Source of the DNA: a bacterium
GTDB lineage: Bacteria > RBG-13-61-14 > DATKZS01
Direction: 5' to 3'
Assembly (NCBI GenBank): GCA_963674965.2
Contig: CAXXFL010000002.1
Coordinates: forward strand, 480,001 to 544,000
DNA: 64,000 bases
Positions 1 through 16,548 of this stretch are shown here, one piece after another (position 1 is the stretch's first letter; every line of letters starts with the position of its first letter). A model generated the notes under the pieces. The model had not been told where the DNA came from, did not search any database, and saw nothing but the letters and a program-made list of their open reading frames with translations. A program made the position numbers and the translations under genes.

Positions 1-705
1 TATTATGAATCACATATTGATGATTGCCTCGATATTGCAAAGGAGATGGATGATCAGACCAAAAAAGGGAAAGTGTATTATATCGCGGCGTCATCTAAGC
101 ATGCAAAATTGCATAAATTGTTCAAAAAAGCAGAGTCAAATAATGGCGATTACCGAGATTTAAGCAAAGCGGCGGATGAAGTGATTGCCCTTTACAATAA
201 GGCCTTGGAATGCGATTTAGATGCGGGCGCCAAGCTGGAAATTTGGGAAAGTAAATCATCTGCATACGCCTATAGATCGGAAGGCGACATGAAATATCTA
301 CCGGAGGTAGAACGAGAAAGTCTTAATTGCCGGCTTCATATATTACTATTGTCAATTACAAACCAAAAGGAAAATGAAATCATACAATATGAAAAATACC
401 CGATATGCTCTAAACCATATGGCCAAGTAGATTATTCTAAATGCTTTGAAACTTATGAAGAAAGGTCAAATTATGTAGAAGAACAAAATCGTATTATTGG
501 CGATCGATATTCTTACACTTTTGAATTTATTTCTTGTTGTCTTGACAATCGCCATGGCCAAAAGGAGAAGAGCAAAAATGATTGTCTAGAGTTGATCGAC
601 ACGTACGTTGTCGATCAAGAATTGAAGAATGAGTTAATTTACTACGTACGCGAGGAAACCGTTCCAAAAAAACTTGGCCACTTTGATATTCCTGAACTAA
701 AATAA
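1..705 (+). CDS. Cys-rich helical lipoprotein, array family C, copy 1 (5' end outside the window)
   Basis: Open frame from base 1; near-identical to 5866-6570, whose full-length ORF has a lipobox (HVGC); AT-rich. Confidence 0.8.
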   Translation, partial: YYESHIDDCLDIAKEMDDQTKKGKVYYIAASSKHAKLHKLFKKAESNNGDYRDLSKAADEVIALYNKALECDLDAGAKLEIWESKSSAYAYRSEGDMKYLPEVERESLNCRLHILLLSITNQKENEIIQYEKYPICSKPYGQVDYSKCFETYEERSNYVEEQNRIIGDRYSYTFEFISCCLDNRHGQKEKSKNDCLELIDTYVVDQELKNELIYYVREETVPKKLGHFDIPELK

Positions 706-812
706 CCAACCGTCCTTGCATTAGGAGGCTATCATGTTTCCGCAAAACAAAGTCAGATTACTCTCCACAGTAATTTTCATCCTTCTTTCATGCCGCGCTT
801 CCCTTGCCGAGG
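1..812 (+). repeat. Direct repeat R1 copy a (lipoprotein gene, intergenic and start of leader gene); copy b at 5866-6677
   Basis: Co-linear at offset 5865, e.g. tattatgaatcacat at 1 and 5866, and taaccaaccgtccttgcattaggaggctatcatgtttcc after both stop codons. Confidence 0.95.
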
Positions 813-1723
813 AAGGATTTAAGGCCCCTTCCGCCGGCGGCATTTTCAAAGTACCGATCGAAAACAAGGGCGAGGTCACCATTCACGGGAACGCTATCGA
901 CGTTTTCCGCCTCGAGGAAAACCCCTCGGATATCGTCACGGGCATAAGCTTCCAGCCTTTGCCCGGCGGCGATTTATTATCTGGCGAAACGGTTATTTTA
1001 ACCATCACTCCTTTGAACCTCGGAGAGATCGAGGACCGCGAGGCATGCGAGGCGTTTAAAAATCCCAAGGTTTACATCAAAACGGCCGCCGCCGAGCCTC
1101 TGGCCAATTACGAGGACATTATCGAAATACCGGTCGAGCCGGCGGGTTTCCACAATTTAAGCGTCGATTACGAAAACTGCGTTATTTACTGGAACTGGGA
1201 ATCCTGCAGCTGCTCGGTCGGCGGTTGCGGCTTCAGTTCGGGAAGCGACAGCCGCGAGATTCCCGGTTGCGAGTGGGCCAAACCGGACGACAACGAGATA
1301 CTCTCGACGGACATACCCGGCCGCCTTTCCGGCGACGACCCGCGAGCTCGAGTCGGAGTATTGGGCGCCCCTCTTTTCGAGGAGTACGCCGCGTCCTTTC
1401 TCGACTCGATCAACGTCGCCTCCCGGAGCGTCGATCCCTTCACGGACCTGGGACCCGATCTGTACGTTTCCGAGGGCGTCAGTGTCCTCGTCATCCCCTC
1501 GGCGTCGCTTTCGCCTTACGTAAATTCCGCGTCTTTCATCTCCAATCTGGACGAGTACGTCTCGGCTGGCGGCGTCGCCGTTGTTTTCTCACAGGCCACC
1601 GGGGATGACTGGTCCATCGTCCCCGGTTCTCCCGAGGCATTCGGTTATACTCAGGACGTTCTTTGCTATCGCGGCGGCGCCCGTCCCTCCGCCTATCATC
1701 TTTTGATATCCAGCGAGGCAAGC
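734..1723 (+). repeat. Direct repeat R2 copy a (990 bp of gene A); copy b at 4482-5471
   Basis: Co-linear at offset 3748; identity ends after ...atccagcgaggcaagc at 1723/5471. Confidence 0.95.
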
Positions 1724-1834
1724 GCGAAGTCCGACGTTCATACCGACGGGTCCTTCGTTAACCGATCAAGGGGGCCGGTTTTCTGGGGGCCTCGAATTTG
1801 CCGGCAATTTTGCCGCATGGGAATAATTTCTTGA
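734..1834 (+). CDS. Secreted protein, array family A, copy 1 (probably C-terminally truncated)
   Basis: RBS aggagg; signal peptide MFPQNKVRLLSTVIFILLSCRASLA; GC-rich; alpha/beta segment VLVIPSASL...LDEYVSAGGVAVVFSQ resembles a class-I glutamine-amidotransferase-like fold; the last ~25 aa look like read-through. Confidence 0.7.
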   Translation: MFPQNKVRLLSTVIFILLSCRASLAEEGFKAPSAGGIFKVPIENKGEVTIHGNAIDVFRLEENPSDIVTGISFQPLPGGDLLSGETVILTITPLNLGEIEDREACEAFKNPKVYIKTAAAEPLANYEDIIEIPVEPAGFHNLSVDYENCVIYWNWESCSCSVGGCGFSSGSDSREIPGCEWAKPDDNEILSTDIPGRLSGDDPRARVGVLGAPLFEEYAASFLDSINVASRSVDPFTDLGPDLYVSEGVSVLVIPSASLSPYVNSASFISNLDEYVSAGGVAVVFSQATGDDWSIVPGSPEAFGYTQDVLCYRGGARPSAYHLLISSEASAKSDVHTDGSFVNRSRGPVFWGPRICRQFCRMGIIS

Positions 1835-1859
1835 CACATTGATACGCAAATGTTATGTA
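1831..1859 (+). promoter_or_regulatory. Possible sigma70 promoter for the 549-aa gene
   Basis: TTGACA at 1831-1836, 17-bp spacer, weak -10 TATGTA. Confidence 0.3.
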
Positions 1860-1930
1860 CTGATGGATCAGGGGAAAATCGGATAATATCCAATCAGCCG
1901 AATCTATGGAGATCAAGGGGGTATTGATAG

Positions 1931-3580
1931 ATGGCCGGCAGAGCAAAGCCACTTATAATCGCGGTTGTGATATTGTTTACTTTTATGATTACAATAGCTT
2001 ACGGAATCGAGATAACAAGGGAGGAGCCGCTGGAGCGCGAGGCCATTTGGCTTGAACTGATCGAGCCGAAATTTACTCCGTATTACATTAATGTTTGGGA
2101 CTCTGACGGAGGAGTGACGGTTGCCGCTCGAACAAGTGAACCCATTTCATTCAGCGCACGAGACTCAGAAGACACGCAGCTTGATGAGCCAGAATTAGTC
2201 AGGAATTATGGCATTGTAAAAGCTCAGATTCATCCACTAAATACATCAGGGCATTATTCATTTAAAATAATCCCAGACTATCCGGAAAATCAATTCTCAA
2301 CCGACATTTCCAATCCTGGGACGGCAACGTTTAGGGCATCCGTACCCGGAAGCTATCGCATCGTACCTGAGTTTTACACTAGTGACGGCAAATTAATCGT
2401 GGTATCAAAAGGCCCTGAAGAACCAAATCAAGATGAGATGTTTGAGGCAAATTTAACGACATTTTCTATTAAAGTTAAAGATACCTGCAGAAGAAAAGTA
2501 TATCAAGTTGATTGTGAAAGCGAGGAAACAAATCAAAACTGTAAAAATATTTTTGGAGTGAATGAAATCGTAGAATTCAATATAATTATGGGAGATTCCT
2601 TATTACAGACATTTAGAGGCGATTGGACGCATAGCAATATAGACGCAGGTGACTTTGGATATAATGATGTCTATGCCGTTGATCCTGGTAGCACTAGTAT
2701 GGCTTACCCACGCGTTTTGGCTGAGGCCCATGAATACATCAATGATGCTATACCGATGTTTCAAGCCTCTACTACAGCAAATATTGCTGATACAATTACC
2801 GTAAAATTCAATAAGCGAGCAGGACATGATGGAGAGCCATTAATCGTAGCCAGACAAAAAGAGACATACAATTTCAAAATCTCTGAACCAAAATATTTTA
2901 TCCCAGTAGACTATGACCCGGCTATTCATCCCGATTATGTTCAACCTTGTAATAGCGGAGAGAGAGGAACGAAGTACTGCTCTGACTTGAATGCATATGG
3001 CCCGGAAGGAGACATTTCAACTGGGCAATCAATGGGAATTAATGCGGGATATTATCTCAAATTAGAGCCTTCTCAAGCTTGTTTCAGGAATATTCTTATT
3101 AGAGATAATTTCACAAACTGCGGAAATACATTAGGGCCAAACAACTGTATTAAATGGGTATGGCCAAATGGTGAAACTTACTGCCCTGCACTTGGAACAA
3201 CTGAAGGAGATACAAGCGGAACAATACCGATAGGTATTTGGGAGATGAATTTTGACAATATTTATAGGGATAAAGCAAAAACGGGCCTTTTCCCATTGCA
3301 ACTAATGAATGAGGTAGCGGAGATTTATAAATATCCTGTAAGAATCAAGATTGAATGGAAATCAACGTTATCTTCAGCGGGCTCTTGGAAAAATATTGGT
3401 CGATCAGGTTTTTGCGCGTATTTTCATCCAAATGGCCAAGCAAATGCGAGAAGAGTTGTCGACAGAATTGGTGATGGTGATACTCTCGGTTATCCGGAAA
3501 ATCCATGTAACAATAATATTGATGCCTTATATTACACTGAGTCTTCGCTCAAAGGTCCTTGGCTGAGACCATCGCACTAG
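1931..3580 (+). CDS. Secreted Cys-rich protein, array family B (549 aa, unknown function)
   Basis: N-terminal signal peptide; AT-rich; C-terminal motif W..IGRSGFCAYFHPNGQANARRV...LYYT..S.KGPW is shared with the tail of 4482-5696. Confidence 0.8.
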   Translation: MAGRAKPLIIAVVILFTFMITIAYGIEITREEPLEREAIWLELIEPKFTPYYINVWDSDGGVTVAARTSEPISFSARDSEDTQLDEPELVRNYGIVKAQIHPLNTSGHYSFKIIPDYPENQFSTDISNPGTATFRASVPGSYRIVPEFYTSDGKLIVVSKGPEEPNQDEMFEANLTTFSIKVKDTCRRKVYQVDCESEETNQNCKNIFGVNEIVEFNIIMGDSLLQTFRGDWTHSNIDAGDFGYNDVYAVDPGSTSMAYPRVLAEAHEYINDAIPMFQASTTANIADTITVKFNKRAGHDGEPLIVARQKETYNFKISEPKYFIPVDYDPAIHPDYVQPCNSGERGTKYCSDLNAYGPEGDISTGQSMGINAGYYLKLEPSQACFRNILIRDNFTNCGNTLGPNNCIKWVWPNGETYCPALGTTEGDTSGTIPIGIWEMNFDNIYRDKAKTGLFPLQLMNEVAEIYKYPVRIKIEWKSTLSSAGSWKNIGRSGFCAYFHPNGQANARRVVDRIGDGDTLGYPENPCNNNIDALYYTESSLKGPWLRPSH

Positions 3581-3618
3581 GCACAAATACCATGAATAAT
3601 TGAACAATTAGTAAGGAG

Positions 3619-4440
3619 ATGGTTATGAGTCGCGAGGTATCAATCATTATTATTGTTATATTAGGTTTGATCTACTCCATTACCGGATGTAAAAATAAGA
3701 ATATCCCAGAGGAAAAGTCCGATAGTCCAAATATTACAGATAACCAATGCTTATCCAATGATTTTGAAATTAGCGCAAACTCTTTCCAGCAATGCCTTAA
3801 TATTGCCAAGACAACTGATAATCCAGATAAAAAATGCCGTATCTATTTCAGAGCCGTATTATATAAAAGGCAGGAAATACTCAAATTGCCTCAAAGCACA
3901 GAAGATAAGGATTATAATTTCGAAAAGATAAGTGAATTGGTTAATGAGCTTATTAATTTCGCGGATAAATCTTTAAAATGTGATTTAGACTGGCGTACTG
4001 AACTAACAATTTATCAACAAAAGTCATGGGCTTATGGCATGAAAACTAATTACGGCCTTAACCAAGAGCCGGGTTTGGATGAAAATATAATTTACTGCGA
4101 TCTTCATATATTAAGGTTAACGGATGAAAAATTGATAGAAAAGGACGCCGTCAGATATACTGACTCTTTCCCGTTATGTTCTGAAGAATTCAGAAATAAA
4201 TCTCTTAAATGCTTTAATACAACCGGAGAGAGAAAAAATTATATTAATAACCAAAATAACCTCTACTTTAACAAGCGAAAGTTATTCTCCTTTTTACAAA
4301 GTCGATGTAGAAATACTACTAATAAAACGGATACATTTGGAGAATGTATGGAAATGATTGATACAATCATCGATGACAATGAACTTAGAGATGAGTTGCT
4401 TAGTTATATTGGACCTCCGCCTAATCCTTCACCACAATAG
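3619..4440 (+). CDS. Cys-rich helical lipoprotein, array family C, divergent paralog
   Basis: RBS aaggag; lipobox ITGC; blocks align with 5728-6570 (CLNIAK/CLDIAK, LKCDLD/LECDLD, CDLHIL/CRLHIL, KCFNT..ERKNY/KCFET..ERSNY, ECMEMIDT/DCLELIDT). Confidence 0.85.
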   Translation: MVMSREVSIIIIVILGLIYSITGCKNKNIPEEKSDSPNITDNQCLSNDFEISANSFQQCLNIAKTTDNPDKKCRIYFRAVLYKRQEILKLPQSTEDKDYNFEKISELVNELINFADKSLKCDLDWRTELTIYQQKSWAYGMKTNYGLNQEPGLDENIIYCDLHILRLTDEKLIEKDAVRYTDSFPLCSEEFRNKSLKCFNTTGERKNYINNQNNLYFNKRKLFSFLQSRCRNTTNKTDTFGECMEMIDTIIDDNELRDELLSYIGPPPNPSPQ

Positions 4441-4481
4441 AAACAATATAATTGCACTCTCTAAAATATCAGGAGTAGATC

Positions 4482-5696
4482 ATGTTTACGCAAAACAAAG
4501 TCAGAGTACTCTCCACAGTAATTTTCATTCTTCTTTCGTGCCGCGCTACCCTTGCCGAGGAAGGATTCAAGGCCCCTTCCGCCGGCGGTATTTTCAAAGT
4601 ACCGATCGAAAACAAGGGCGAGGTCACCATACACGGGAACGCCATCGACGTTTTCCGCCTCGAGGAAAACCCCTCGGATATCGTCACGGGCATAAGCTTC
4701 CAGCCTTTGCCCGGCGGCGATTTTTTATCGGGCGAAACGGTTATTTTAACCATCACTCCTTTGAACCTCGGAGAGATCGAGGACCGCGAGTCATGCGAGT
4801 CGTTTAAAAATCCCAAGGTTTACATCAAAACGGCCGCCGCCGAGCCTCTGGCCAATTACGAGGACATTATCGAAATACCGGTCGAGCCGGCGGGTTTCCA
4901 CAATTTAAGCGTCGATTACGAAAACTGCGTTATTTACTGGAACTGGGAATCCTGCAGCTGCTCGGTCGGCGGTTGCGGCTTCAGTTCGGGAAGCGACAGC
5001 CGCGAGATTCCCGGTTGCGAGTGGGCCAAACCGGACGACAACGAGATACTCTCGACGGACATACCCGGCCGCCTTTCCGGCGACGACCCGCGAGCTCGAG
5101 TCGGAGTATTGGGCGCCCCTCTTTTCGAGGAGTACGCCGCGTCCTTTCTCGACTCGATCAACGTCGCCTCCCGGAGCGTCGATCCCTTCACGGACCTGGG
5201 ACCCGATCTGTACGTTTCCGAGGGCGTCAGTGTCCTCGTCATCCCCTCGGCGTCGCTTTCGCCTTACGTAAATTCCGCGTCTTTCATCTCCAATCTGGAC
5301 GAGTACGTCTCGGCTGGCGGCGTCGCCGTTGTTTTCTCACAGGCCACCGGGGAGGACTGGTCCATCGTCCCCGGTTCTCCCGAGGCATTCGGTTATACTC
5401 AGGACGTTCTTTGCTATCGCGGCGGCGCCCGTCCCTCCGCCTATCATCTTTTGATATCCAGCGAGGCAAGCCCCGTCTGGAATGAACTAGGCAACTCTGG
5501 TTTTTGTGCCTATTTCTATCCAAATGGAAGCGCCAACGCAAGGAGAGTGATCGATAAGCTAAGTGAAAACGATTCTCCTGGCAATCCCGATGGTCCAACT
5601 TATCCATGCGCGGAGAATGGAAACTCATTGTATTACACTACAACTTCACCTAGAGGGCCTTGGGTGACTCAATCTAGTATTCCATTGCCAAATTAA
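4482..5696 (+). CDS. Chimeric secreted protein: family A N-terminus (330 aa) fused in-frame to a family B-type C-terminal module (~74 aa)
   Basis: First 990 nt near-identical to 734-1723, then an abrupt GC drop and PVWNELGNSGFCAYFYPNGSANARRVIDKL, homologous to the end of 1931-3580. Confidence 0.8.
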   Translation: MFTQNKVRVLSTVIFILLSCRATLAEEGFKAPSAGGIFKVPIENKGEVTIHGNAIDVFRLEENPSDIVTGISFQPLPGGDFLSGETVILTITPLNLGEIEDRESCESFKNPKVYIKTAAAEPLANYEDIIEIPVEPAGFHNLSVDYENCVIYWNWESCSCSVGGCGFSSGSDSREIPGCEWAKPDDNEILSTDIPGRLSGDDPRARVGVLGAPLFEEYAASFLDSINVASRSVDPFTDLGPDLYVSEGVSVLVIPSASLSPYVNSASFISNLDEYVSAGGVAVVFSQATGEDWSIVPGSPEAFGYTQDVLCYRGGARPSAYHLLISSEASPVWNELGNSGFCAYFYPNGSANARRVIDKLSENDSPGNPDGPTYPCAENGNSLYYTTTSPRGPWVTQSSIPLPN

Positions 5697-5727
5697 TGAT
5701 TTGCCTTTAAATTGAGAGGAGATTACT

Positions 5728-6570
5728 ATGGCTAAGAAAATATCTTTATCAGACATATGTGGCTTTCTATTTATTGCCGTTTTTTTACATGTTGGATGTA
5801 ATAATATCCCAAGTGAACCAGGCGAAAGCGTCACTCAGCAGAAATGCTTGCAAGGCAGTTTTAAATATTATGAATCACATATTAATGATTGCCTCGATAT
5901 TGCAAAGGAGATGGATGATCAAACCAAAAAAGGGAAAGTGTATTATATCGCGGCGTCGTCTAAACATGCAAAATTGGATGAATTGTTCAAAAAAGCATTG
6001 GGGAATGAGGGCGATTTCCGAGATTTAAGCAAAGCGGCGGATGAAGTGATTGCCCTTTACAATAAGGCCTTGGAATGTGATTTAGATGCGGGCGCCAAGC
6101 TGGAAATTTGGGAAAGTAAATCATCTGCATACGCCTATAGATCGGAAGGCGACATGAAATATCTACCGGAGGTAGAACGAGAAAGTCTTAATTGCCGGCT
6201 TCATATATTACTATTGTCAATTACAAACCAAAAGGAAAATGAAATCATACAATATGAAAAATACCCGATATGCTCTAAACCATATGGCCAAGTAGATTAT
6301 TCTAAATGCTTTGAAACTTATGAAGAAAGGTCAAATTATGTAGAAGAACAAAATCGTATTATTGGCGATCGATATTCTTACACTTTTGAATTTATTTCCC
6401 GTTGTATTGACAATCGCCATGGCCAAAAGGAGAAGAGTAAAAATGATTGTCTGGAGTTGATCGATACGTACGTTTTCGATCAAGAATTGAAGAATGAGTT
6501 AATTTACTACGTACGCGAGGAAACCGTTCCAAAAAAACTTGGCCACTTTGATATTCCTGAACTAAAATAA
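5728..6570 (+). CDS. Cys-rich helical lipoprotein, array family C, copy 2 (full length)
   Basis: RBS gaggag; signal peptide with lipobox FLHVGC; near-identical to 1-705. Confidence 0.85.
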   Translation: MAKKISLSDICGFLFIAVFLHVGCNNIPSEPGESVTQQKCLQGSFKYYESHINDCLDIAKEMDDQTKKGKVYYIAASSKHAKLDELFKKALGNEGDFRDLSKAADEVIALYNKALECDLDAGAKLEIWESKSSAYAYRSEGDMKYLPEVERESLNCRLHILLLSITNQKENEIIQYEKYPICSKPYGQVDYSKCFETYEERSNYVEEQNRIIGDRYSYTFEFISRCIDNRHGQKEKSKNDCLELIDTYVFDQELKNELIYYVREETVPKKLGHFDIPELK

Positions 6571-6598
6571 CCAACCGTCCTTGCATTAGGAGGCTATC

Positions 6599-6724
6599 AT
6601 GTTTCCACAAAACAAAGTCAGAGTACTCTCCACTTTAATTTTCATTCTTCTTTCGTGCCGCGCTACCCTTGCCGAGGCATGTCCACCCCGAGTCACCACC
6701 CTGGGAATATTAAATCCGGCGTAG
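6599..6724 (+). pseudogene. Third, truncated family A start (signal peptide only, 41-aa ORF)
   Basis: MFPQNKVRVLSTLIFILLSCRATLAE, then unrelated sequence from 6678; TAG at 6722-6724. Confidence 0.75.
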
Positions 6725-6886: not shown

Positions 6887-8266
6887 TCAGTCTTCGGCCT
6901 CTTTCTCGCGCTTTTTGAATTCCCACCATACCCAGGCGACGGCGAAGACGCCGCCCACCACGTGGGAGGAGGCGATGGCGACCCAGGCCCCGGCGGGACC
7001 GATCGAGTGGTGGAGGACGGTGACTAAAGGTATGGCCACGAAGATGAAGCGGGCGAGGGTAATGATGAGGGGAGGAAGGCCCTTGCCCAGTCCCTGGAAG
7101 GCCCCGCCCAGCACGAAGACCTGGGACACGAAGACGTAGGTGAAGCCCACTATGCCGATGTACTCGAGCCCGTAGCCCGAGATGACCTGGTATAGTACCG
7201 GGTCTTCGGTACGGTTGAAAAGGCCGATGAAGAACTCGGGGAAACATATAAAGACCATGCCCATGGCGCCCGAGAAGACGGCGGCGAAGAACCCGCCGGT
7301 CCAGGCCGAGCGCTTGGCCCGGGACAGGTTTCCGGCCCCGTAGTTCTGGCCCACCATGGACACGACCCCCAGCATGAGGCCTATCATGGGCAGCACCGCC
7401 AGCATGTCGAGCTGGGCGCCCATGCCGTAGGCGGCGGTGGCGCCCTCGTACTGGTTTAGCACCCTGAGGAAAATCATGGTCGCGAACCAGGCCGACATGT
7501 TGCGGCCCATCATGGGCACTCCGACCCGCAGTATCTCGATAACGTGGCGCGGATGCCAGTGGTAATTGCAAAAGGACAAGGTCCAGTTGGTCTTGCCCCG
7601 CTTCAAGTAAAATATCAGCAGGACGCAACCCACTCCCCGGCCGATGACCGTGGCCAGGGCCCCGCCCATTACGCCCATGCCCAGCCAGCCGAGGTGAAGA
7701 CCGAATATCCGGTCCTCCGGCCCGAAAATCAGGAGGGGGGCCAGGACGAGGTTGATCGAGAGACTGATGACGGCCAATACAAAGGGCGCCACCGAGTTGC
7801 CTTCCCCCCGCAGGATGTTGGCCCCGATCAGGCTGAACATGATGGTCACGTTGCCCACCAGGATGATCTTAATAAAGTCGTGGGCCGTTTCGATCATGGA
7901 CTCGTCCATTTTCAGGACCCTGAAATAATGGCGGTTCAAGGGAAGTAAAATCACGGTGGCGGAAATGGATAGTATGGCCATCAGAATAATGGCGTGCATG
8001 GCGGCGTTGTCGGCCTCGTTATATTCGCCCTTGCCGATCAGGCGGGCCACGTAGGAGGTCACGCCCGTGGCCAGTCCGGTCGCCATCATGATGATGAACA
8101 TCTGGAGATTGGCGGCGTTGACCACCGCTGAAAAGGCCTCGGGCCCGAGCTGGGCGATGAATACGCGGTCTAAAATTCCGAACAGGGGCTGGATGGCCAT
8201 CTGCCCGATAATCGGGGCGCTGAAGAGGAGCAGGACAACGGGGATGCTTCCCCTGGTAAGGTCCAT
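6887..8266 (-). CDS. MATE family efflux transporter
   Basis: MDLTRGSIPVVLLLFSAPII start, DRVFIAQLG, ILRGEGNS..P, GQNYGAGN, about 12 TM segments; start placed at ATG 8266. Confidence 0.92.
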   Translation of the reverse strand: MDLTRGSIPVVLLLFSAPIIGQMAIQPLFGILDRVFIAQLGPEAFSAVVNAANLQMFIIMMATGLATGVTSYVARLIGKGEYNEADNAAMHAIILMAILSISATVILLPLNRHYFRVLKMDESMIETAHDFIKIILVGNVTIMFSLIGANILRGEGNSVAPFVLAVISLSINLVLAPLLIFGPEDRIFGLHLGWLGMGVMGGALATVIGRGVGCVLLIFYLKRGKTNWTLSFCNYHWHPRHVIEILRVGVPMMGRNMSAWFATMIFLRVLNQYEGATAAYGMGAQLDMLAVLPMIGLMLGVVSMVGQNYGAGNLSRAKRSAWTGGFFAAVFSGAMGMVFICFPEFFIGLFNRTEDPVLYQVISGYGLEYIGIVGFTYVFVSQVFVLGGAFQGLGKGLPPLIITLARFIFVAIPLVTVLHHSIGPAGAWVAIASSHVVGGVFAVAWVWWEFKKREKEAED

Positions 8267-8758
8267 GCCCCGACCGCGGGGGGGAACGGCCTCGGCCGCC
8301 GGCGGCTCGGGACAGGCGACGCCATGGTCTATTCCGATATTTTTTTTCCCGTCTTCAAACAAAGGCTTTCCCAGGTCGGCCCAAGGGCGCGCACGCGAAG
8401 GCAACCCGCCGCCGGGCGTGAATCGGATATCGAGTATCAAGAGTACACGTAGTCTCATGAAAATGCACGCCAATCAAGAGAAGGAACATTTTTTACGCCT
8501 CATGAAAAAATCTTATATCGGCGGCAAAGCCGACTTGGAGCGGGAAATCTTTCGCTTCTGATCTGGAAACTCGATTCCGCAAGGAAAAGACGCGCGGAGG
8601 GTCCCTGGCTAATAAAAGTAGCTTTAAGCCAGCACGCTCCTGATCCTGATTTTTACAACAGCCTATTAAAAAAAGGTTTTTTCTATCTCGATATCAATCC
8701 GGGCTTTTCCGTTTTATTAGATCGCTCTAATTTTTTTATGGAGGAGGAAAATTTTTTC

Positions 8759-8807
8759 TTGACAAAGGATTTAAAAGAAACTAAAATGATTTTAAAGGAT
8801 TTAAAAG
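8759..8807 (+). promoter_or_regulatory. Sigma70 promoter with overlapping 14-bp direct repeats (candidate operator)
   Basis: TTGACA 8759-8764, 17-bp spacer, TAAAAT 8782-8787; AAAGGATTTAAAAG at 8764-8777 and 8794-8807. Confidence 0.75.
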
Positions 8808-8848
8808 TAGCTATGAGTAACATAAAGGACGATAAAGGAGCGAAGAAC

Positions 8849-9082
8849 ATGCCCTCGGAAATTCTTCTGACTCTTGAACAAGTGGCGGAAAGACTGGCCG
8901 TAAGCCGAAAGATGGTATTCGACTGGGTAAGAGCGGGCAAGATTCCCGGAGTTAAGCTCGGGCGCTTATGGAGGGTCAAGCAGAGCGCGCTTGACGAATT
9001 CATCAATTCCCTGGAGACGGTAGGACCCAACGACGACCAGCGCGGCCCCGACCGTGAGGAGGACGCGGATGAGGGCCGATAA
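8849..9082 (+). CDS. Excisionase-family (HTH_17/BldC-like) DNA-binding protein
   Basis: LLTLEQVAERLAVSRKMVFDWVRAGKIPGVKLGRLWRVKQSALDEF; RBS aaggag before ATG 8849. Confidence 0.9.
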   Translation: MPSEILLTLEQVAERLAVSRKMVFDWVRAGKIPGVKLGRLWRVKQSALDEFINSLETVGPNDDQRGPDREEDADEGR

Positions 9083-9186
9083 TTTAATCTCGGCCCTTAA
9101 GTTCGCCTTGGAGGTGTCAGGTCGCGTTTAACATATAAGACGCAGTGAGAGATAGCATCCATTCCAGGCGGAGGGAGGTCAGCGAA

Positions 9187-12100
9187 ATGGGACATCCTTA
9201 TCGGACGATGCCGGCCGAATCGGGTTCGGATAAAAAACTCAAGCGCAAAGCATATCTTGGTTACGCCCTCATCATTTTCAGCATATTCCTGTTAATTCTG
9301 ATGTATATATATCCTCCCTGGGTAGGGTACTATGAGCACGATAAGAAAGAAATCGGATACTATCTCTTAATGGATGATCAAAAAGCAAAGGAAGAAAATC
9401 AAGCCCTCGAGGTCGCGGTTGACATTGATCGCTTCTTGGGCCAGCTATTATTTATACTGGGACCGATCATCTGGAAGGCCCGCTCCTTGATAAGGGATTC
9501 CAGGGAGGAGACGGATTCGGAATATATATCGCGGGGACGAGAAGGAATCTTTGATAAATCCGCGATTGAAGAGTTTATTGAAGACGAACATGCCATCAGT
9601 GATCGGGATACCCTCTCCGGATTAAACCATAACCACAATCAATCCGGGTCATCGGGAATGGGTTCCTGCTTTGATAATAATGGAATCCAAGGTCCCTCGT
9701 CCAGTTCCGCGACTCAAAATCCTCGCTTGCCAATGGAATACGGAGTAAGAAGGTACTGGGACTCTGATGAAGATGGGCGCTTCATTGTGGAGCTATATGA
9801 AAATCTCGAGGAGATCGACCAGGATTTTATCAATAGTATCCGTAATGATCGAAGCCATGATGACGATTTATGGAAACTTGCCCGGGGCCTGGAGAACGGC
9901 GAGATTCAATATGAGAACGCGCTGAGCCATTACGTTTATTACCTTGGTCGGTGGAATTTATCGCGGGTCGCATGGGTCGTCTGCGGGGCCATGCTTCACG
10001 CCGCGACGGGAAATCCTAAAACGGCTGAAAAGCTGTTTGCCGAGGCCGAGGAAGCCGACCCGGAAAACGGGTTAATCTATTGCTTTCGCTTCCTTTGTCG
10101 CTGTGAGATGGGTGAGTTCACCGAAGCTTTAGAAGACCTTAATTCCCTTGTATCCACAGCTTCTGACTCACATTATTGGCCGAAATGGCAAAGTCTCTCG
10201 ACCAGGGGACGTTTTAAGCTCGAATATGTAAGCGCCGAGGAAGCCATTGAAGATTTTACCATACTGATAGATAACGGCTGGGAAGTGGGCGAGCATCTTT
10301 TCAATCGAGGCAAAGCCTATGCATCGCTGAAGAATTTTGAAAACGCCGTTTCCGATTTTACGGATGCCTTGCAGTCGGACCTCGTCGATCCCGGTCCCAT
10401 TCTCAGCGCAAGGGGCCAGGCCTTTTACGAAATGGGCCTGACCAACCTGGCGCTCGAGGATTTGGACGAAGCCATATCGATGGGCCTGCCCGAACACTCT
10501 TCGGAGGTATATTATTGCCGCGGCAAGATTGCCTTCGAGCGAGAGGATTTTCCCAAGGTGATCGAGTGCTTTCCCCAAACGAGTGCTTTCTGGGGTTATA
10601 ACTCGCGCACACATATCATGCGGGGCCTGTCCTATTGCCGCGTGGGTCAATTCGAACTCGCGCTAAAAGATATCAACTCCGCGTGCTCTGAAGAGGGGGC
10701 CATGCTCTCTTGGCGAAGCTACTGTCTTTGCAGGCTTAAAAGATATAAAGACGCCTTGAGCGACGTCGAACTGGTCAAGAAAAGGAATCTCGATGACGAG
10801 ACTATTTGCGAATGGGAGACAATAAGTCTTGCGGACTCGGAAGTACGTCTCGAATGGGGAAAGGCATATCTTCACGAGGGGGATTATTTTTCCGCCATCA
10901 AGGAATTCGGCATTGCCCTCGATGAAGACCACTGGATGGCCGAGTCCTACCTGGAGCGCGGCCGGGCCTATCTTTGTCTGGCCCAAGACGTGGGAAAGAA
11001 ACGAAAGAAAAAATCCGAGATTTTTATTGGAAGCTCGAGGGAATGCGATATTGTCATAAAGGGAGAAAAAGTCGCCCCCAGGCACGCCCGCGTTTTTCGC
11101 CAGGGCGCGGTCATAATGGTGGAGGACATGGGAAGCCCCCACGGGACCTACGCAGGCTATAATTTTAGACGACTGCCGGCGCACGTTCCCACCCCAATGG
11201 AGTTTTCCGGGGAGCTATTCCTGGGCGACCGCGCCTTCAACGTGCATCGTCTCAATGAGTTCGGTTTCTTCGATAGCGAGAACGGGAACGGAAGAAACTG
11301 CTATGACCGGGCGATCCAGGACCTTTCATGGGCGCTGGAATGCGACGCCGAGGACCTCGTGGCGCTCAGGCTTCGATCCGAGGCCTACTCGGGCAATCGA
11401 ATGCACGACGAGGCCATCGCCGACCTCACCGCCATCTTGCGGCTTCAGCCCCGCGACTTTGACGCCTTGGGGGCAAGGGCCGAAGCTTATCTGAATACCC
11501 AGCGTTACGAATTGGCCCTGAATGACTGCGACAAGGCCATTCATCTTCAACCCCACCAAGCGGACTTCCATCATCTTCGAGGTCGGGTCTACGCGAAAAG
11601 GGGCCAGATGGGCGCGGCCAGGAAAGACTATCAAAGGGCCCGGGAACTGGACCCGAAAAAATACACGATCAAGACCCGGCCCAAGAAAAGCACGGAGGCA
11701 AAGAGCGAGTTCAGACTGCCCGGCCGCTTCGAGCTGGAGAAATTCTTCAAGGACCATGTAATCGATATAGTCGAATCGCCCGAGCGATATGGTGAGATGG
11801 GTATAGACTTTCCCTATCCCATCGCGCTTCACGGACCGCCGGGATGCGGCAAGACCCACGCCGCCAACGTCCTGTTAAATTACCTTGGCTGGCCCAGCTT
11901 CACCATCAACTCCGGCTCGGTGGGCAACATGTACATCCACGAGACCCCCCGGCTGATCGCCGCGACCTTCGAGGAGGCCAAAGCCAAGGCGCCCGCGGTG
12001 GTCGTGATCGACGAGATGGACGCCTTCATGTGCAACCGCGATTATGAGAGGCGGGCTTTTCGCAACGAGGAGGTGGCGGAGTATCTGCGCAATCTTCAGG

Positions 12101-12447
12101 ACGCCTCGGAAAATCGCATCCTGATAATAGGCATGACCAACCAGATCGACATGATCGATCCGGCGCTGTTGCGGCGGGGCCGCTTCGATCACGTCATAAA
12201 AGTCGATTTTCCGTCAAGGGAAGAATTGAAGGAATGCCTGAGCGCTCTTCTTTCCGGTTACCCTTGCGTAAGGGGCCTTAACGTTAATTACGTGGCCGAC
12301 GCTTTGCGTTCGAGGCCATTGTCGGACGCGGGCTATATCGTGCGGGAGGCCGCCCGCCTCGCCTGCAAGTCGAAGAAGAAAAAAATAGACGACCTATGCC
12401 TGGTGAGCGCCCTCCAGGCGGCTATAAAGCAAAAGTCGTTCAACTGA
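9187..12447 (+). CDS. Membrane-anchored TPR / FHA / AAA+ ATPase multidomain protein
   Basis: N-terminal TM helix; many TPR motifs; FHA-like IFIGSSRECDIVI..VAPRHARV..VEDMGSPHGT; Walker A GPPGCGKT, Walker B VVVIDEMD, SRH TNQIDMIDPALLRRGRFD; RBS ggaggg before ATG 9187. Confidence 0.85.
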   Translation: MGHPYRTMPAESGSDKKLKRKAYLGYALIIFSIFLLILMYIYPPWVGYYEHDKKEIGYYLLMDDQKAKEENQALEVAVDIDRFLGQLLFILGPIIWKARSLIRDSREETDSEYISRGREGIFDKSAIEEFIEDEHAISDRDTLSGLNHNHNQSGSSGMGSCFDNNGIQGPSSSSATQNPRLPMEYGVRRYWDSDEDGRFIVELYENLEEIDQDFINSIRNDRSHDDDLWKLARGLENGEIQYENALSHYVYYLGRWNLSRVAWVVCGAMLHAATGNPKTAEKLFAEAEEADPENGLIYCFRFLCRCEMGEFTEALEDLNSLVSTASDSHYWPKWQSLSTRGRFKLEYVSAEEAIEDFTILIDNGWEVGEHLFNRGKAYASLKNFENAVSDFTDALQSDLVDPGPILSARGQAFYEMGLTNLALEDLDEAISMGLPEHSSEVYYCRGKIAFEREDFPKVIECFPQTSAFWGYNSRTHIMRGLSYCRVGQFELALKDINSACSEEGAMLSWRSYCLCRLKRYKDALSDVELVKKRNLDDETICEWETISLADSEVRLEWGKAYLHEGDYFSAIKEFGIALDEDHWMAESYLERGRAYLCLAQDVGKKRKKKSEIFIGSSRECDIVIKGEKVAPRHARVFRQGAVIMVEDMGSPHGTYAGYNFRRLPAHVPTPMEFSGELFLGDRAFNVHRLNEFGFFDSENGNGRNCYDRAIQDLSWALECDAEDLVALRLRSEAYSGNRMHDEAIADLTAILRLQPRDFDALGARAEAYLNTQRYELALNDCDKAIHLQPHQADFHHLRGRVYAKRGQMGAARKDYQRARELDPKKYTIKTRPKKSTEAKSEFRLPGRFELEKFFKDHVIDIVESPERYGEMGIDFPYPIALHGPPGCGKTHAANVLLNYLGWPSFTINSGSVGNMYIHETPRLIAATFEEAKAKAPAVVVIDEMDAFMCNRDYERRAFRNEEVAEYLRNLQDASENRILIIGMTNQIDMIDPALLRRGRFDHVIKVDFPSREELKECLSALLSGYPCVRGLNVNYVADALRSRPLSDAGYIVREAARLACKSKKKKIDDLCLVSALQAAIKQKSFN

Positions 12448-15465: not shown

Positions 15466-16548
15466 TCAGGTCTTCAGCAACTTATAAAAGCACCGGACCG
15501 TCTCTTCCTTCTCGTCGTCCCAAAGGTGCATCGAGTTGCCCTGGCAGCGTCTCCACTGGCCGCAGTCCAGGCACGGTCCTTTCCGCATCCAGTCCCGCTC
15601 ACGGAAGGGACCGAAGCGCTCCTCCCAGACCGTCCGCAGGTCGTCGGTCTTCACGTTGCCCTGGATAAGAGAACGGGAAACGTTGGGACAGGCCGAGATG
15701 GCGCCATCGGACAGGACCGAGCCGATGGCTATCCCGGCGCGGCAGAAATAGGGCTCGTCTCGGATGGCCCGGTCCACGTCGGCCGGGAAGTAGCCCTCGC
15801 AGCAGAAGTCCACGTGGAACCCGCTTCCCTTTAAGCGCCTCCTCGTCCGGGATATCCAGACGATGAGGTCACGAGTTTCACTAACCGATAAAATCAACTC
15901 CTCGTTTTTCGCCGCCCGGCCCTTGGGAAAAATAAGGAAAAGACGCCAGTAGGAAACCCCCTTGTCCATGAGAAAGGCCATTACCTGGTCAAGCTCGGGC
16001 AGGTTCCTCGGGTTGACGCAGGTCACCACGTCGAAAAGGGGAAAGCCCGCCTCGACGGCGCGCCCGATACCGGCGACCGCCCTCTTGAAGCTGCCCCTCC
16101 TCCCTCGCAGCCAGTCGTGGTTATCCTCCAGCCCGTCAAGGCTGATCGTCATGCTCGAGAGGCGGTCCTCCTTGAGCAGGCGAATGGCCGAGTCGTCAAG
16201 AAGGTAACCGTTCGTGACCATGCCCCATTTGAGGCCCTCATCCCTCAGCCCGGCCGCCACTTTCGCGAAGTCCGGACGGCAAAGAGGCTCTCCGCCCGTG
16301 ACCACCGCCATGAGTTTCTCGACGTCGAAGTTTTGTTTGACGTAATGGAAAAGGCCCAGCCAGTCTTTGAGAGTCAGTTCCTCGGAGCGGGGCGCGCTTC
16401 CGCAGTCGCTTCCGCAGTGGAGACAGTTGAGGTTGCACCGCTGGGTTATCTCGAGGAAGAGGTACCGTAAAGGATGAACGTCCGTTTCCAGGCGCCTGTA
16501 AATCGGATGAACGAGGCGCCGGAGCACGGGCCGGTCGAGAAAGGACAT
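15466..16548 (-). CDS. Radical SAM/SPASM enzyme of the rSAM-lipoprotein system type
   Basis: CNLNCLHC, TGGEPL, SPASM cysteines CRAG..ACPN..CLDC..RRCQG..C; 4 nt downstream of a C-YGPP lipoprotein gene. Confidence 0.9.
   Translation of the reverse strand: MSFLDRPVLRRLVHPIYRRLETDVHPLRYLFLEITQRCNLNCLHCGSDCGSAPRSEELTLKDWLGLFHYVKQNFDVEKLMAVVTGGEPLCRPDFAKVAAGLRDEGLKWGMVTNGYLLDDSAIRLLKEDRLSSMTISLDGLEDNHDWLRGRRGSFKRAVAGIGRAVEAGFPLFDVVTCVNPRNLPELDQVMAFLMDKGVSYWRLFLIFPKGRAAKNEELILSVSETRDLIVWISRTRRRLKGSGFHVDFCCEGYFPADVDRAIRDEPYFCRAGIAIGSVLSDGAISACPNVSRSLIQGNVKTDDLRTVWEERFGPFRERDWMRKGPCLDCGQWRRCQGNSMHLWDDEKEETVRCFYKLLKT

Follow-up and report, generated by a model that had tools for sequence, protein, structure and literature searches.

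Polymorphic toxin systems have been described by the diversity of their C-terminal toxins, and toxin peptidases are reported to lie invariably at the C-terminus (PMC3482391). Orphan modules of toxin C-terminus and immunity gene were defined by Poole et al. 2011 (PMC3150448). Toxins that act on the cell envelope have membrane or lipoprotein immunity proteins, as noted in the lipocone paper (PMC12419801). The WHIX effectors of type VI secretion systems (T6SS) are a precedent for N-terminal toxic domains with upstream immunity genes (PMC12135965). Here we describe an array of genes for secreted proteins and lipoproteins in a 64,000-nucleotide stretch of bacterial DNA (the window, positions 480001–544000 of contig C2 in genome G000). 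The genome comprises 6.5 Mb in seven contigs, and its phylum is represented by 13 genomes in the collection. The array is built from a stand-alone secreted protein B, lipoproteins of a family C, and truncated copies (A′) of the 5′ end of a giant gene; contigs C2, C4 and C6 are distinct from the lipoprotein genes C0, C1, C′ and C2. In our best reading, which we hold to be somewhat better than an even bet, B and C form a free-effector variant of an N-terminally tipped polymorphic effector/immunity system, and C genes without B are spare immunity genes. By analogy, and with similar confidence, the polarity of the locus appears to be the reverse of that in Rhs and contact-dependent inhibition (CDI) systems.

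An earlier note on this DNA had placed the elements in the order C1–A1–B–C′–A2::B-tail–C2–A3 stub, all on the + strand, and they lie as placed. The note also described A as a conserved leader with variable tips, and this part does not stand. No intact gene has A on the N-terminal side of B, and in the wider family the variable part comes before the conserved domain. The identity of A is seen at a larger locus on contig C6 (minus strand), which reads ankyrin lipoprotein, G1, B0, C0, A′, B1, C, A′, B2, C, G2. Giant gene G2 begins with A, and A′ therefore corresponds to its first 342 codons. A1 (734..1834) consists of these 342 codons followed by 24 read-through codons and a stop, is 96% identical to G2 over 343 aa, and encodes a signal peptide, a small N-domain, a Cys-rich linker and most of a conserved core domain. 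A1 closes with a stop codon and B opens with a signal peptide of its own, which makes them two genes. A as the leader of B was thus rejected; A is the duplicated 5′ kilobase of the downstream giant gene. The three A′ copies all diverge from G2 at one base (after window base 1760) and enter the same region upstream of B. This junction and upstream region (1761..1930) is 97–99% identical to the C6 unit and contains a perfect TTGACA at 1831–1836 with a weak −10, a putative promoter recognized by eye. A consensus promoter and terminator scan gave hits at chance level (18 versus 13.3 ± 3.8) and did not list this site. The repeated unit is thus promoter–B–C–A′ and not leader–tip–immunity. The sole A::B fusion, A2::B-tail (4482..5696), joins A codon 330 in frame to the last 74 residues of a B0-type gene at 5467–5471, and is a deletion scar across a 5-nt imperfect microhomology.

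The sequence of the array is strongly uneven in its conservation. As described earlier, A is near-identical between copies (98.2% over 1004 nt, 720–1723 versus 4468–5471) and B and C are AT-rich, with GC fractions of 0.56 for A1, 0.41 for B, 0.33 for C′ and 0.37 for C2 in a genome of 0.58. C1 and C2 with the following A start are 96.4% identical (1–812 versus 5866–6677, 812 nt), and 5467–6677 is 95.5% identical to C6:783646-782436. Between the window and the C6 unit, identity is 93–100% from A′ through the promoter region to codon ~57 of B, drops to 49–68% through the B body and C, and stays there up to the next A. Synonymous divergence is 0.03–0.05 among A copies, 0.6 to saturation among B types, and at least 1.4 among C types. 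Simple duplication cannot give such a pattern, in which the arms are near-identical while the modules differ. The pattern indicates that the B body and C are exchanged as one module between two arms, A′–promoter–B 5′ on the left and A on the right, and that these arms are being homogenised or were recently copied, in line with the recombination proposed in the earlier note. The pairing of B with C also holds, as the two diverge together: B types of 95–96% identity have C of 84%, those of 70% have C of 45–48%, and those of 48–51% have C of 31%, which from four pairs is a pattern and not a statistic. The A copies stay 96–98% identical, and therefore C does not track A.

The partner of B (1931..3580) is C′ (3625..4440), a 271-aa lipoprotein with lipobox ITGC that is ~31% identical to all other C copies. 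C2 (5728..6570) is a 280-aa lipoprotein with lipobox VGC, whose own B is deleted except for the tail. C′ and C2 are divergent paralogs (31% identical) with conserved cysteines, as had been noticed, and eight cysteines are invariant over the seven C copies. The model of C2 shows a confident helical solenoid (predicted local distance difference test, pLDDT, 84.6) of TPR/MIT-like type. Its best Foldseek E-value is 3.4e-3, and VIA Z reaches 10.2 over 76 residues (root mean square deviation 2.1) to a MIT bundle; there is no Pfam TPR match, and none of the fold matches is significant. An intact upstream B of matching type is missing for three of the seven C genes, namely C1, C2 and a lone copy on contig C4. 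C1 (1..705) is a whole 280-aa gene that starts at G000:C2:479863, 138 nt before the window; C2 and the C0 of contig C6 share 93–96% identity with it. All that precedes it is the 3′ end of a gene unrelated to the array. The earlier statement that each B C-terminus is followed by a C gene and each C gene by an A start thus holds, but C1 is an orphan partner gene without B. The lone C on contig C4 runs from its own ribosome site to the ribosome site of A. The ankyrin lipoprotein upstream of G1 was also copied alone to contig C4 (98.7% identical, with another signal peptide). There it lies between two other secreted genes (L006:6088-9379 in G000:C4), a possible cluster of spare partner genes. The orphan C copies are intact despite the missing B and are under purifying selection, with a ratio of nonsynonymous to synonymous substitution rates (dN/dS) of ~0.3–0.5. 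Partner genes that spread without clients match the behavior of orphan immunity genes (cf. PMC5361080), suggesting that C is a membrane-anchored immunity protein of B.

The core domain of A has no match in Pfam, NCBIfam or PDB and no look-alike in the sequence index searched, and it defines a wider family. Of 262 candidate metagenome stretches 44 contain it, at 40 loci; it also occurs in seven giants of 2788–4244 aa, in one Acidobacteriota contig and in three of six genomes of another phylum; none of the five closest genomes of its own phylum has it. A survey of tips covered 49 core-bearing open reading frames (ORFs) in 42 loci. The part before the core varies, and may be a hydrolase tip, an HExxH domain on a transthyretin-like stalk, or only a signal peptide and linker. 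Zinc phospholipase C (PLC)-like tips are commonest. A profile of nine such tips matches a solved PLC with an E-value of 1.2e-9, the conserved His/Asp metal ligands of PF00882 are present, and PF00882 itself matches five of the nine tips (best 5.8e-5); in a separate survey only one of eight PLC-like tips had a direct Pfam match at E ≤ 0.01. Other tips are M23 (two), Amidase_6 (one), transglutaminase (one), and thioredoxin and Cys-rich domains. From our own reading of motifs, L020 may carry an NlpC/P60-like tip (no Pfam match), P0007 a GH25-like tip and P0009 a lipase-like tip, for the last of which Pfam has a weak row. A tree of 35 cores, from which 12 duplicate or edge-cut rows were left out, groups G1 and G2 100/100 with the cores of L020–L022, with a long branch and an unsure exact place for G2. 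Four tip states occur in this clade (none, NlpC-like and two PLC types). The core giants of L046, L050, L051 and L052 form a separate clade. Their N-termini are thioredoxin plus Cys-rich or helical, no partner gene is evident upstream, and L050 holds two of them in tandem.

Twenty pairs of a hydrolase-like tip and a same-strand upstream ORF were picked by hand, with no tipless, thioredoxin, Cys-rich or transglutaminase locus and no near-duplicate among them. In these pairs tips and upstream genes cluster congruently. Four have HEAT partners, four a second family, six transthyretin-like partners and the rest are single; one pair of upstream genes joined at a looser cut-off. An N-terminal hydrophobic stretch is present in 19 of the 20 upstream genes, and the remaining one is cut by the contig. 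Stacked cassettes are found in relatives as well. L020 reads HEAT gene, PLC orphan, HEAT gene, PLC with truncated core, another membrane gene, NlpC-like tip with truncated core, HEAT gene, PLC and contig end. L022 reads truncated core, secreted 504-aa gene, 213-aa lipoprotein and tipless giant. This giant is homologous to A and G2 (N-terminus 28% identical to that of A, E 2e-20; body 39–43% identical to G2), and L022 therefore has the layout of the window with a different pair. With near-duplicates counted once, truncated tip-core cassettes upstream of a further core gene occur in three lineages besides the genome itself (L020–L022, L048/L057 and G062). In L032 and L048/L057 the free gene before the tipless giant ends in an HExxH domain. 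By analogy, this gene in the position of B is the best positional hint that B may be an effector. At L020:3924-4088, 12096-12263 and 16069-16238, L021:2509-2674 and L022:2030-2198, a promoter-like site is accompanied by a conserved leader of ~170 nt. These cassette leaders end in a terminator-like hairpin with compensatory changes and are candidate attenuator or antitermination leaders; Rfam gave no match in five loci searched, and no match was found in the own genome or the other loci examined.

B itself is a 549-aa beta-rich, Cys-rich protein and the candidate effector. Signal peptides are recognized by eye at the start of B and of the carriers, in agreement with the Sec-type export proposed earlier. 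The first ~57 codons are near-identical between copies and the rest is 48–51% identical to the C6 paralogues. An exhaustive profile search with B gave seven matches: five are loci of the own genome together with one outside full-length homologue, P0012 (525 aa, 44% identical), the only one of its kind, and two are giants matched over a short stretch only. Word-based homologue searches returned only B and C′ themselves, a metagenome scan with B found none among 441 candidates, and neither B nor C was found in the 12 other genomes of the phylum. The C family has no match in Pfam, NCBIfam or PHROGs (sub-threshold rows only). ESM Atlas matches reach at most 0.86 for B and 0.90 for C. The structure model of B is poor (pLDDT 34.6), and its Foldseek matches (TM ≤0.15) are leads only. 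A prediction of the B–C′ complex scored 0.21 against a mark of 0.32, with controls not folded, and counts neither way. In our reading, B would be a free effector that acts outside the cytoplasm and is probably displayed with the giant.

The mechanism we propose starts from a carrier, a giant with a Sec-type signal peptide, Ig, MG2 and FG-GAP domains, and the core near its N-terminus. Many relatives carry an envelope-type hydrolase fused in front of the core, with a class-specific, membrane-targeted gene just upstream; in tipless relatives, as here, this place upstream is taken by stand-alone secreted proteins. By N-terminal displacement, an incoming piece of promoter, partner, tip and core would recombine into the resident giant through homology in A, and the older module would be pushed upstream with a dead A′ 5′ stub behind it. 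Truncated copies of the giant 5′ end are indeed present in upstream arrays. One founding junction may later have been copied by homologous recombination, and the C-only copies (C1, C2 and the lone copy on contig C4) may have been kept as spare immunity. The window is without a giant and both giants on C6 are broken by insertion sequences (IS), and therefore the locus in this strain is probably mainly a store of immunity genes and cassettes.

Several observations weigh against B and C as effector and immunity protein. No toxin domain or catalytic motif is recognisable in B, which has no match in Pfam, NCBIfam, PHROGs (sub-threshold rows only) or PDB sequences and is homologous over its whole length instead of having a conserved stalk with unrelated tips. 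No comparison gave dN/dS above 1, and nothing in the data ties B to the giant. The order B then C is opposite to the partner-then-tip order of the fused relatives. Profiles of B and C matched none of 1395 ORFs in 42 related loci, and homology of the L022 pair with B–C is not demonstrable (hhalign 1% and 0.1%); the analogy with relatives is therefore positional. The 20 pairs were picked by hand, labels are shared among kin, a number of loci are near-duplicates, and no evident partner lies upstream in L043, L045, L046 or L049–L052, of which L046 and L049–L052 have thioredoxin/Cys-rich tips. The link of the G1 tip to PLC is tentative (motif aligned, hhalign E 4e-4, 35%, 22 columns; no Pfam, PDB or tip-profile match), as is that of its partner to transthyretin-like proteins (E 0.18). 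The weak look-alikes of B are of Ig, cadherin and fimbrillin type. These last, with its beta-rich character, are what a non-toxic variable surface component would show, such as an adhesin tip or a receptor-binding subunit of the giant fibre, with C as a dedicated lipoprotein chaperone or anchor and the array varying the surface, for instance against phage or predators. The N-domain profile of B also matches repeats of two giant proteins, one with adhesin-type MBG/YDG repeats, and C has the look of a TPR-like binding scaffold; a chaperone would co-diverge with its client too. However, a chaperone does not explain the three C genes of seven that lack a matching intact B upstream and yet are preserved under purifying selection, and two further tipless lineages, L032 and L048/L057, have an HExxH domain in the gene that takes the position of B. 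We consider this explanation unlikely, though it is the strongest of the rivals.

Alternatively, the tips and B could be lytic or nutrient-scavenging enzymes that act on prey or dead biomass, with the partners as maturation or self-protection factors and exchange tuning the substrate range. The identified tips are indeed envelope- or protein-type hydrolases, and predators' degradation of cell walls has been tied to giant surface proteins (bioRxiv 10.1101/2023.11.21.568195). Conflict among kin is a better fit for partners specific to a tip class, for partners that stand alone and for orphan cassettes in stacks (PMC3150448, PMC5361080), and we regard scavenging as improbable. Least probable is a neutral origin, in which IS-driven duplication and decay of a horizontally acquired B–C–giant operon left the array without functional exchange. 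In its support, G1, G2, B0 and B2 are broken by IS elements or deletion, all A′ share one junction, and the operon was not found in the 12 other genomes of the phylum searched. Yet the arms are 96–98% identical while the modules are at or near synonymous saturation, which simple duplication cannot yield, and the same architecture recurs in other lineages. The effector/immunity reading of B and C is the one that we carry forward. A bolder form of it, which we rate as possible but short of an even chance, is a cross-phylum class, not described before, of Sec-exported giant ‘spear’ proteins. These would carry N-terminal antibacterial enzymes or be loaded in trans with free effectors such as B, and their immunity-tip-core cassettes would be stacked upstream by N-terminal displacement. 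B would then represent a novel kind of effector and C a novel family of immunity proteins; the core would serve as a mark of the payload, which it may also dock or release.

The window is a detached, giant-less satellite of the larger IS-damaged array on C6. There, G1 (3315 aa) is followed by IS110, a 546-aa piece, a second IS and a deletion, which at the IS removed the G1/B0 junction; G2 (2840 aa) is cut by an IS, and B2 is split by one. No close copy of the B–C′ pair of the window exists on C6, and the satellite is therefore not a plain duplicate. Its right border is the A3 stub (6599..6724), 41 aa with 26 codons of A, where homology ends at 6677. The flanks have no other copy anywhere in the genome; the left-flank gene has an orthologue in G003, without synteny to the window. 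Misassembly was considered and rejected. In two public runs of one sample, which may be the source sample of the genome, the B body, C′ and the start of A2 are covered with zero differences by a unique contig of 2507 nt at single-copy depth (17.7 and 16.3, flanks 15.5–19.2). In run X1 the A region is 4–5× deeper, matching the prediction from five A copies. The B-tail of A2::B-tail is at ~2× single-copy depth; the A2/B-tail junction is not among the assembly pieces listed, and no single listed piece spans the whole array.

Some neighboring features were also recorded. A MATE gene (6887-8473) borders the array, and beyond it lie an HTH_17 gene and a 1100-aa membrane-TPR-FHA-AAA protein (window 8738-12447). 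An insertion sequence of 1.66 kb has more than 20 near-identical copies across many G000 contigs, often at contig ends. A 7101-aa giant at G000:C6:824495-858328 (minus strand) has a helical-repeat N-terminus and tail domains in common with G1/G2 and is without the core. A tail homologue at C6:824-830 kb, tried as the rest of G2, was rejected, as it belongs to this separate giant. In front of it lie a 2900-aa Rhs-like gene, AT-rich genes of small size and a fragment with YD repeats (labels by eye). An RHS-repeat protein is paired with a TSP3-like repeat giant at three paralogous loci, G000:C6:752000-763775, C6:881384-896813 and C2:63000-75000. The pairs are ~71–73% identical, and one of them directly follows the IS that cuts G2.

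Searches for polymorphic toxins target variable C-termini and downstream immunity genes, and a reversed system would be missed by design. The core domain offers a marker for collecting such loci. The predicted toxin–immunity pairs are PLC with HEAT-repeat or transthyretin-like partners, the NlpC-like tip with its own partner, and B with C, and they may include new families of antibacterial enzymes and inhibitors from uncultured lineages.

In the literature covered we found no description of this carrier or of upstream truncated-core arrays; the supplements and last part of PMC3482391 lie outside this scope and could list them. Predatory Omnitrophota likewise have exported multi-domain proteins of very large size, with a link to attacks on cell envelopes (bioRxiv 10.1101/2023.11.21.568195). 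In contrast to the loci here, the available portion of that paper describes no partner genes, tip exchange or cassette arrays; ‘recombination’ does not occur in it and ‘immunity’ only in a reference. The T6SS of Vibrio cholerae shares successive effector–immunity pairs, retained old immunity genes and homologous recombination without a dedicated recombinase (PMC5361080), whereas the loci here have no T6SS genes, and the old modules lie upstream, each leaving a truncated carrier 5′ end. WHIX subclass II T6SS effectors are closer in design, with variable N-terminal envelope-targeting domains (M23, NlpC/P60) and an upstream immunity gene bearing a signal peptide, shown by experiment for Awe1/AwiU (PMC12135965). 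An N-terminal hydrolase with an upstream exported partner is likewise found in the fused relatives, but not in B–C, where the order is reversed. The WHIX proteins are T6SS cargo below 900 aa (Awe1) with a second C-terminal toxin (PMC12135965), whereas the carriers here have Sec-type signal peptides and 2800–4700 aa with Ig/MG2/FG-GAP domains, are tipped mostly by PLC, and have arrays of truncated cores upstream. Two secretins and four VgrG-like (Phage_base_V) matches are present in the genome, none of them at these loci; the VgrG-like ones are more than 100 kb away or on other contigs, so that export next to vgrG is not what is seen.

With Rhs and CDI systems the locus shares a giant exported carrier, an exchangeable and putatively toxic tip, an adjacent partner, and arrays of orphan modules that keep a piece of conserved core for recombination (PMC3150448, PMC3482391). 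In the fused relatives, however, the tip is at the N-terminus, the partner is upstream, and the orphans lie upstream with the carrier 5′ end; the variable gene of the window is separate from the carrier. Nor is there a conserved N-terminal trafficking region with a variable C-terminal toxin: A1 stops before B, B is homologous throughout, and the tips of the family are N-terminal. RHS/YD and haemagglutinin repeats are absent by Pfam from A, B, C, G1 and G2, and for A, B and C the earlier note had said the same; A, B and C have no Pfam match, and G1/G2 have FG-GAP, MG2 and MAM domains only. Orphan modules with a piece of conserved core are present in mirror orientation, in the own genome, L020–L022, L048/L057 and G062. 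For a cognate immunity gene next to the effector the signs are indirect: the co-divergence of B and C, the class congruence of the 20 picked pairs and the partner-only copies. The kinship with polymorphic toxin loci proposed in the earlier note is thus upheld with its polarity reversed: the system lies outside the definition by variable C-termini, yet it would work like a polymorphic toxin system.

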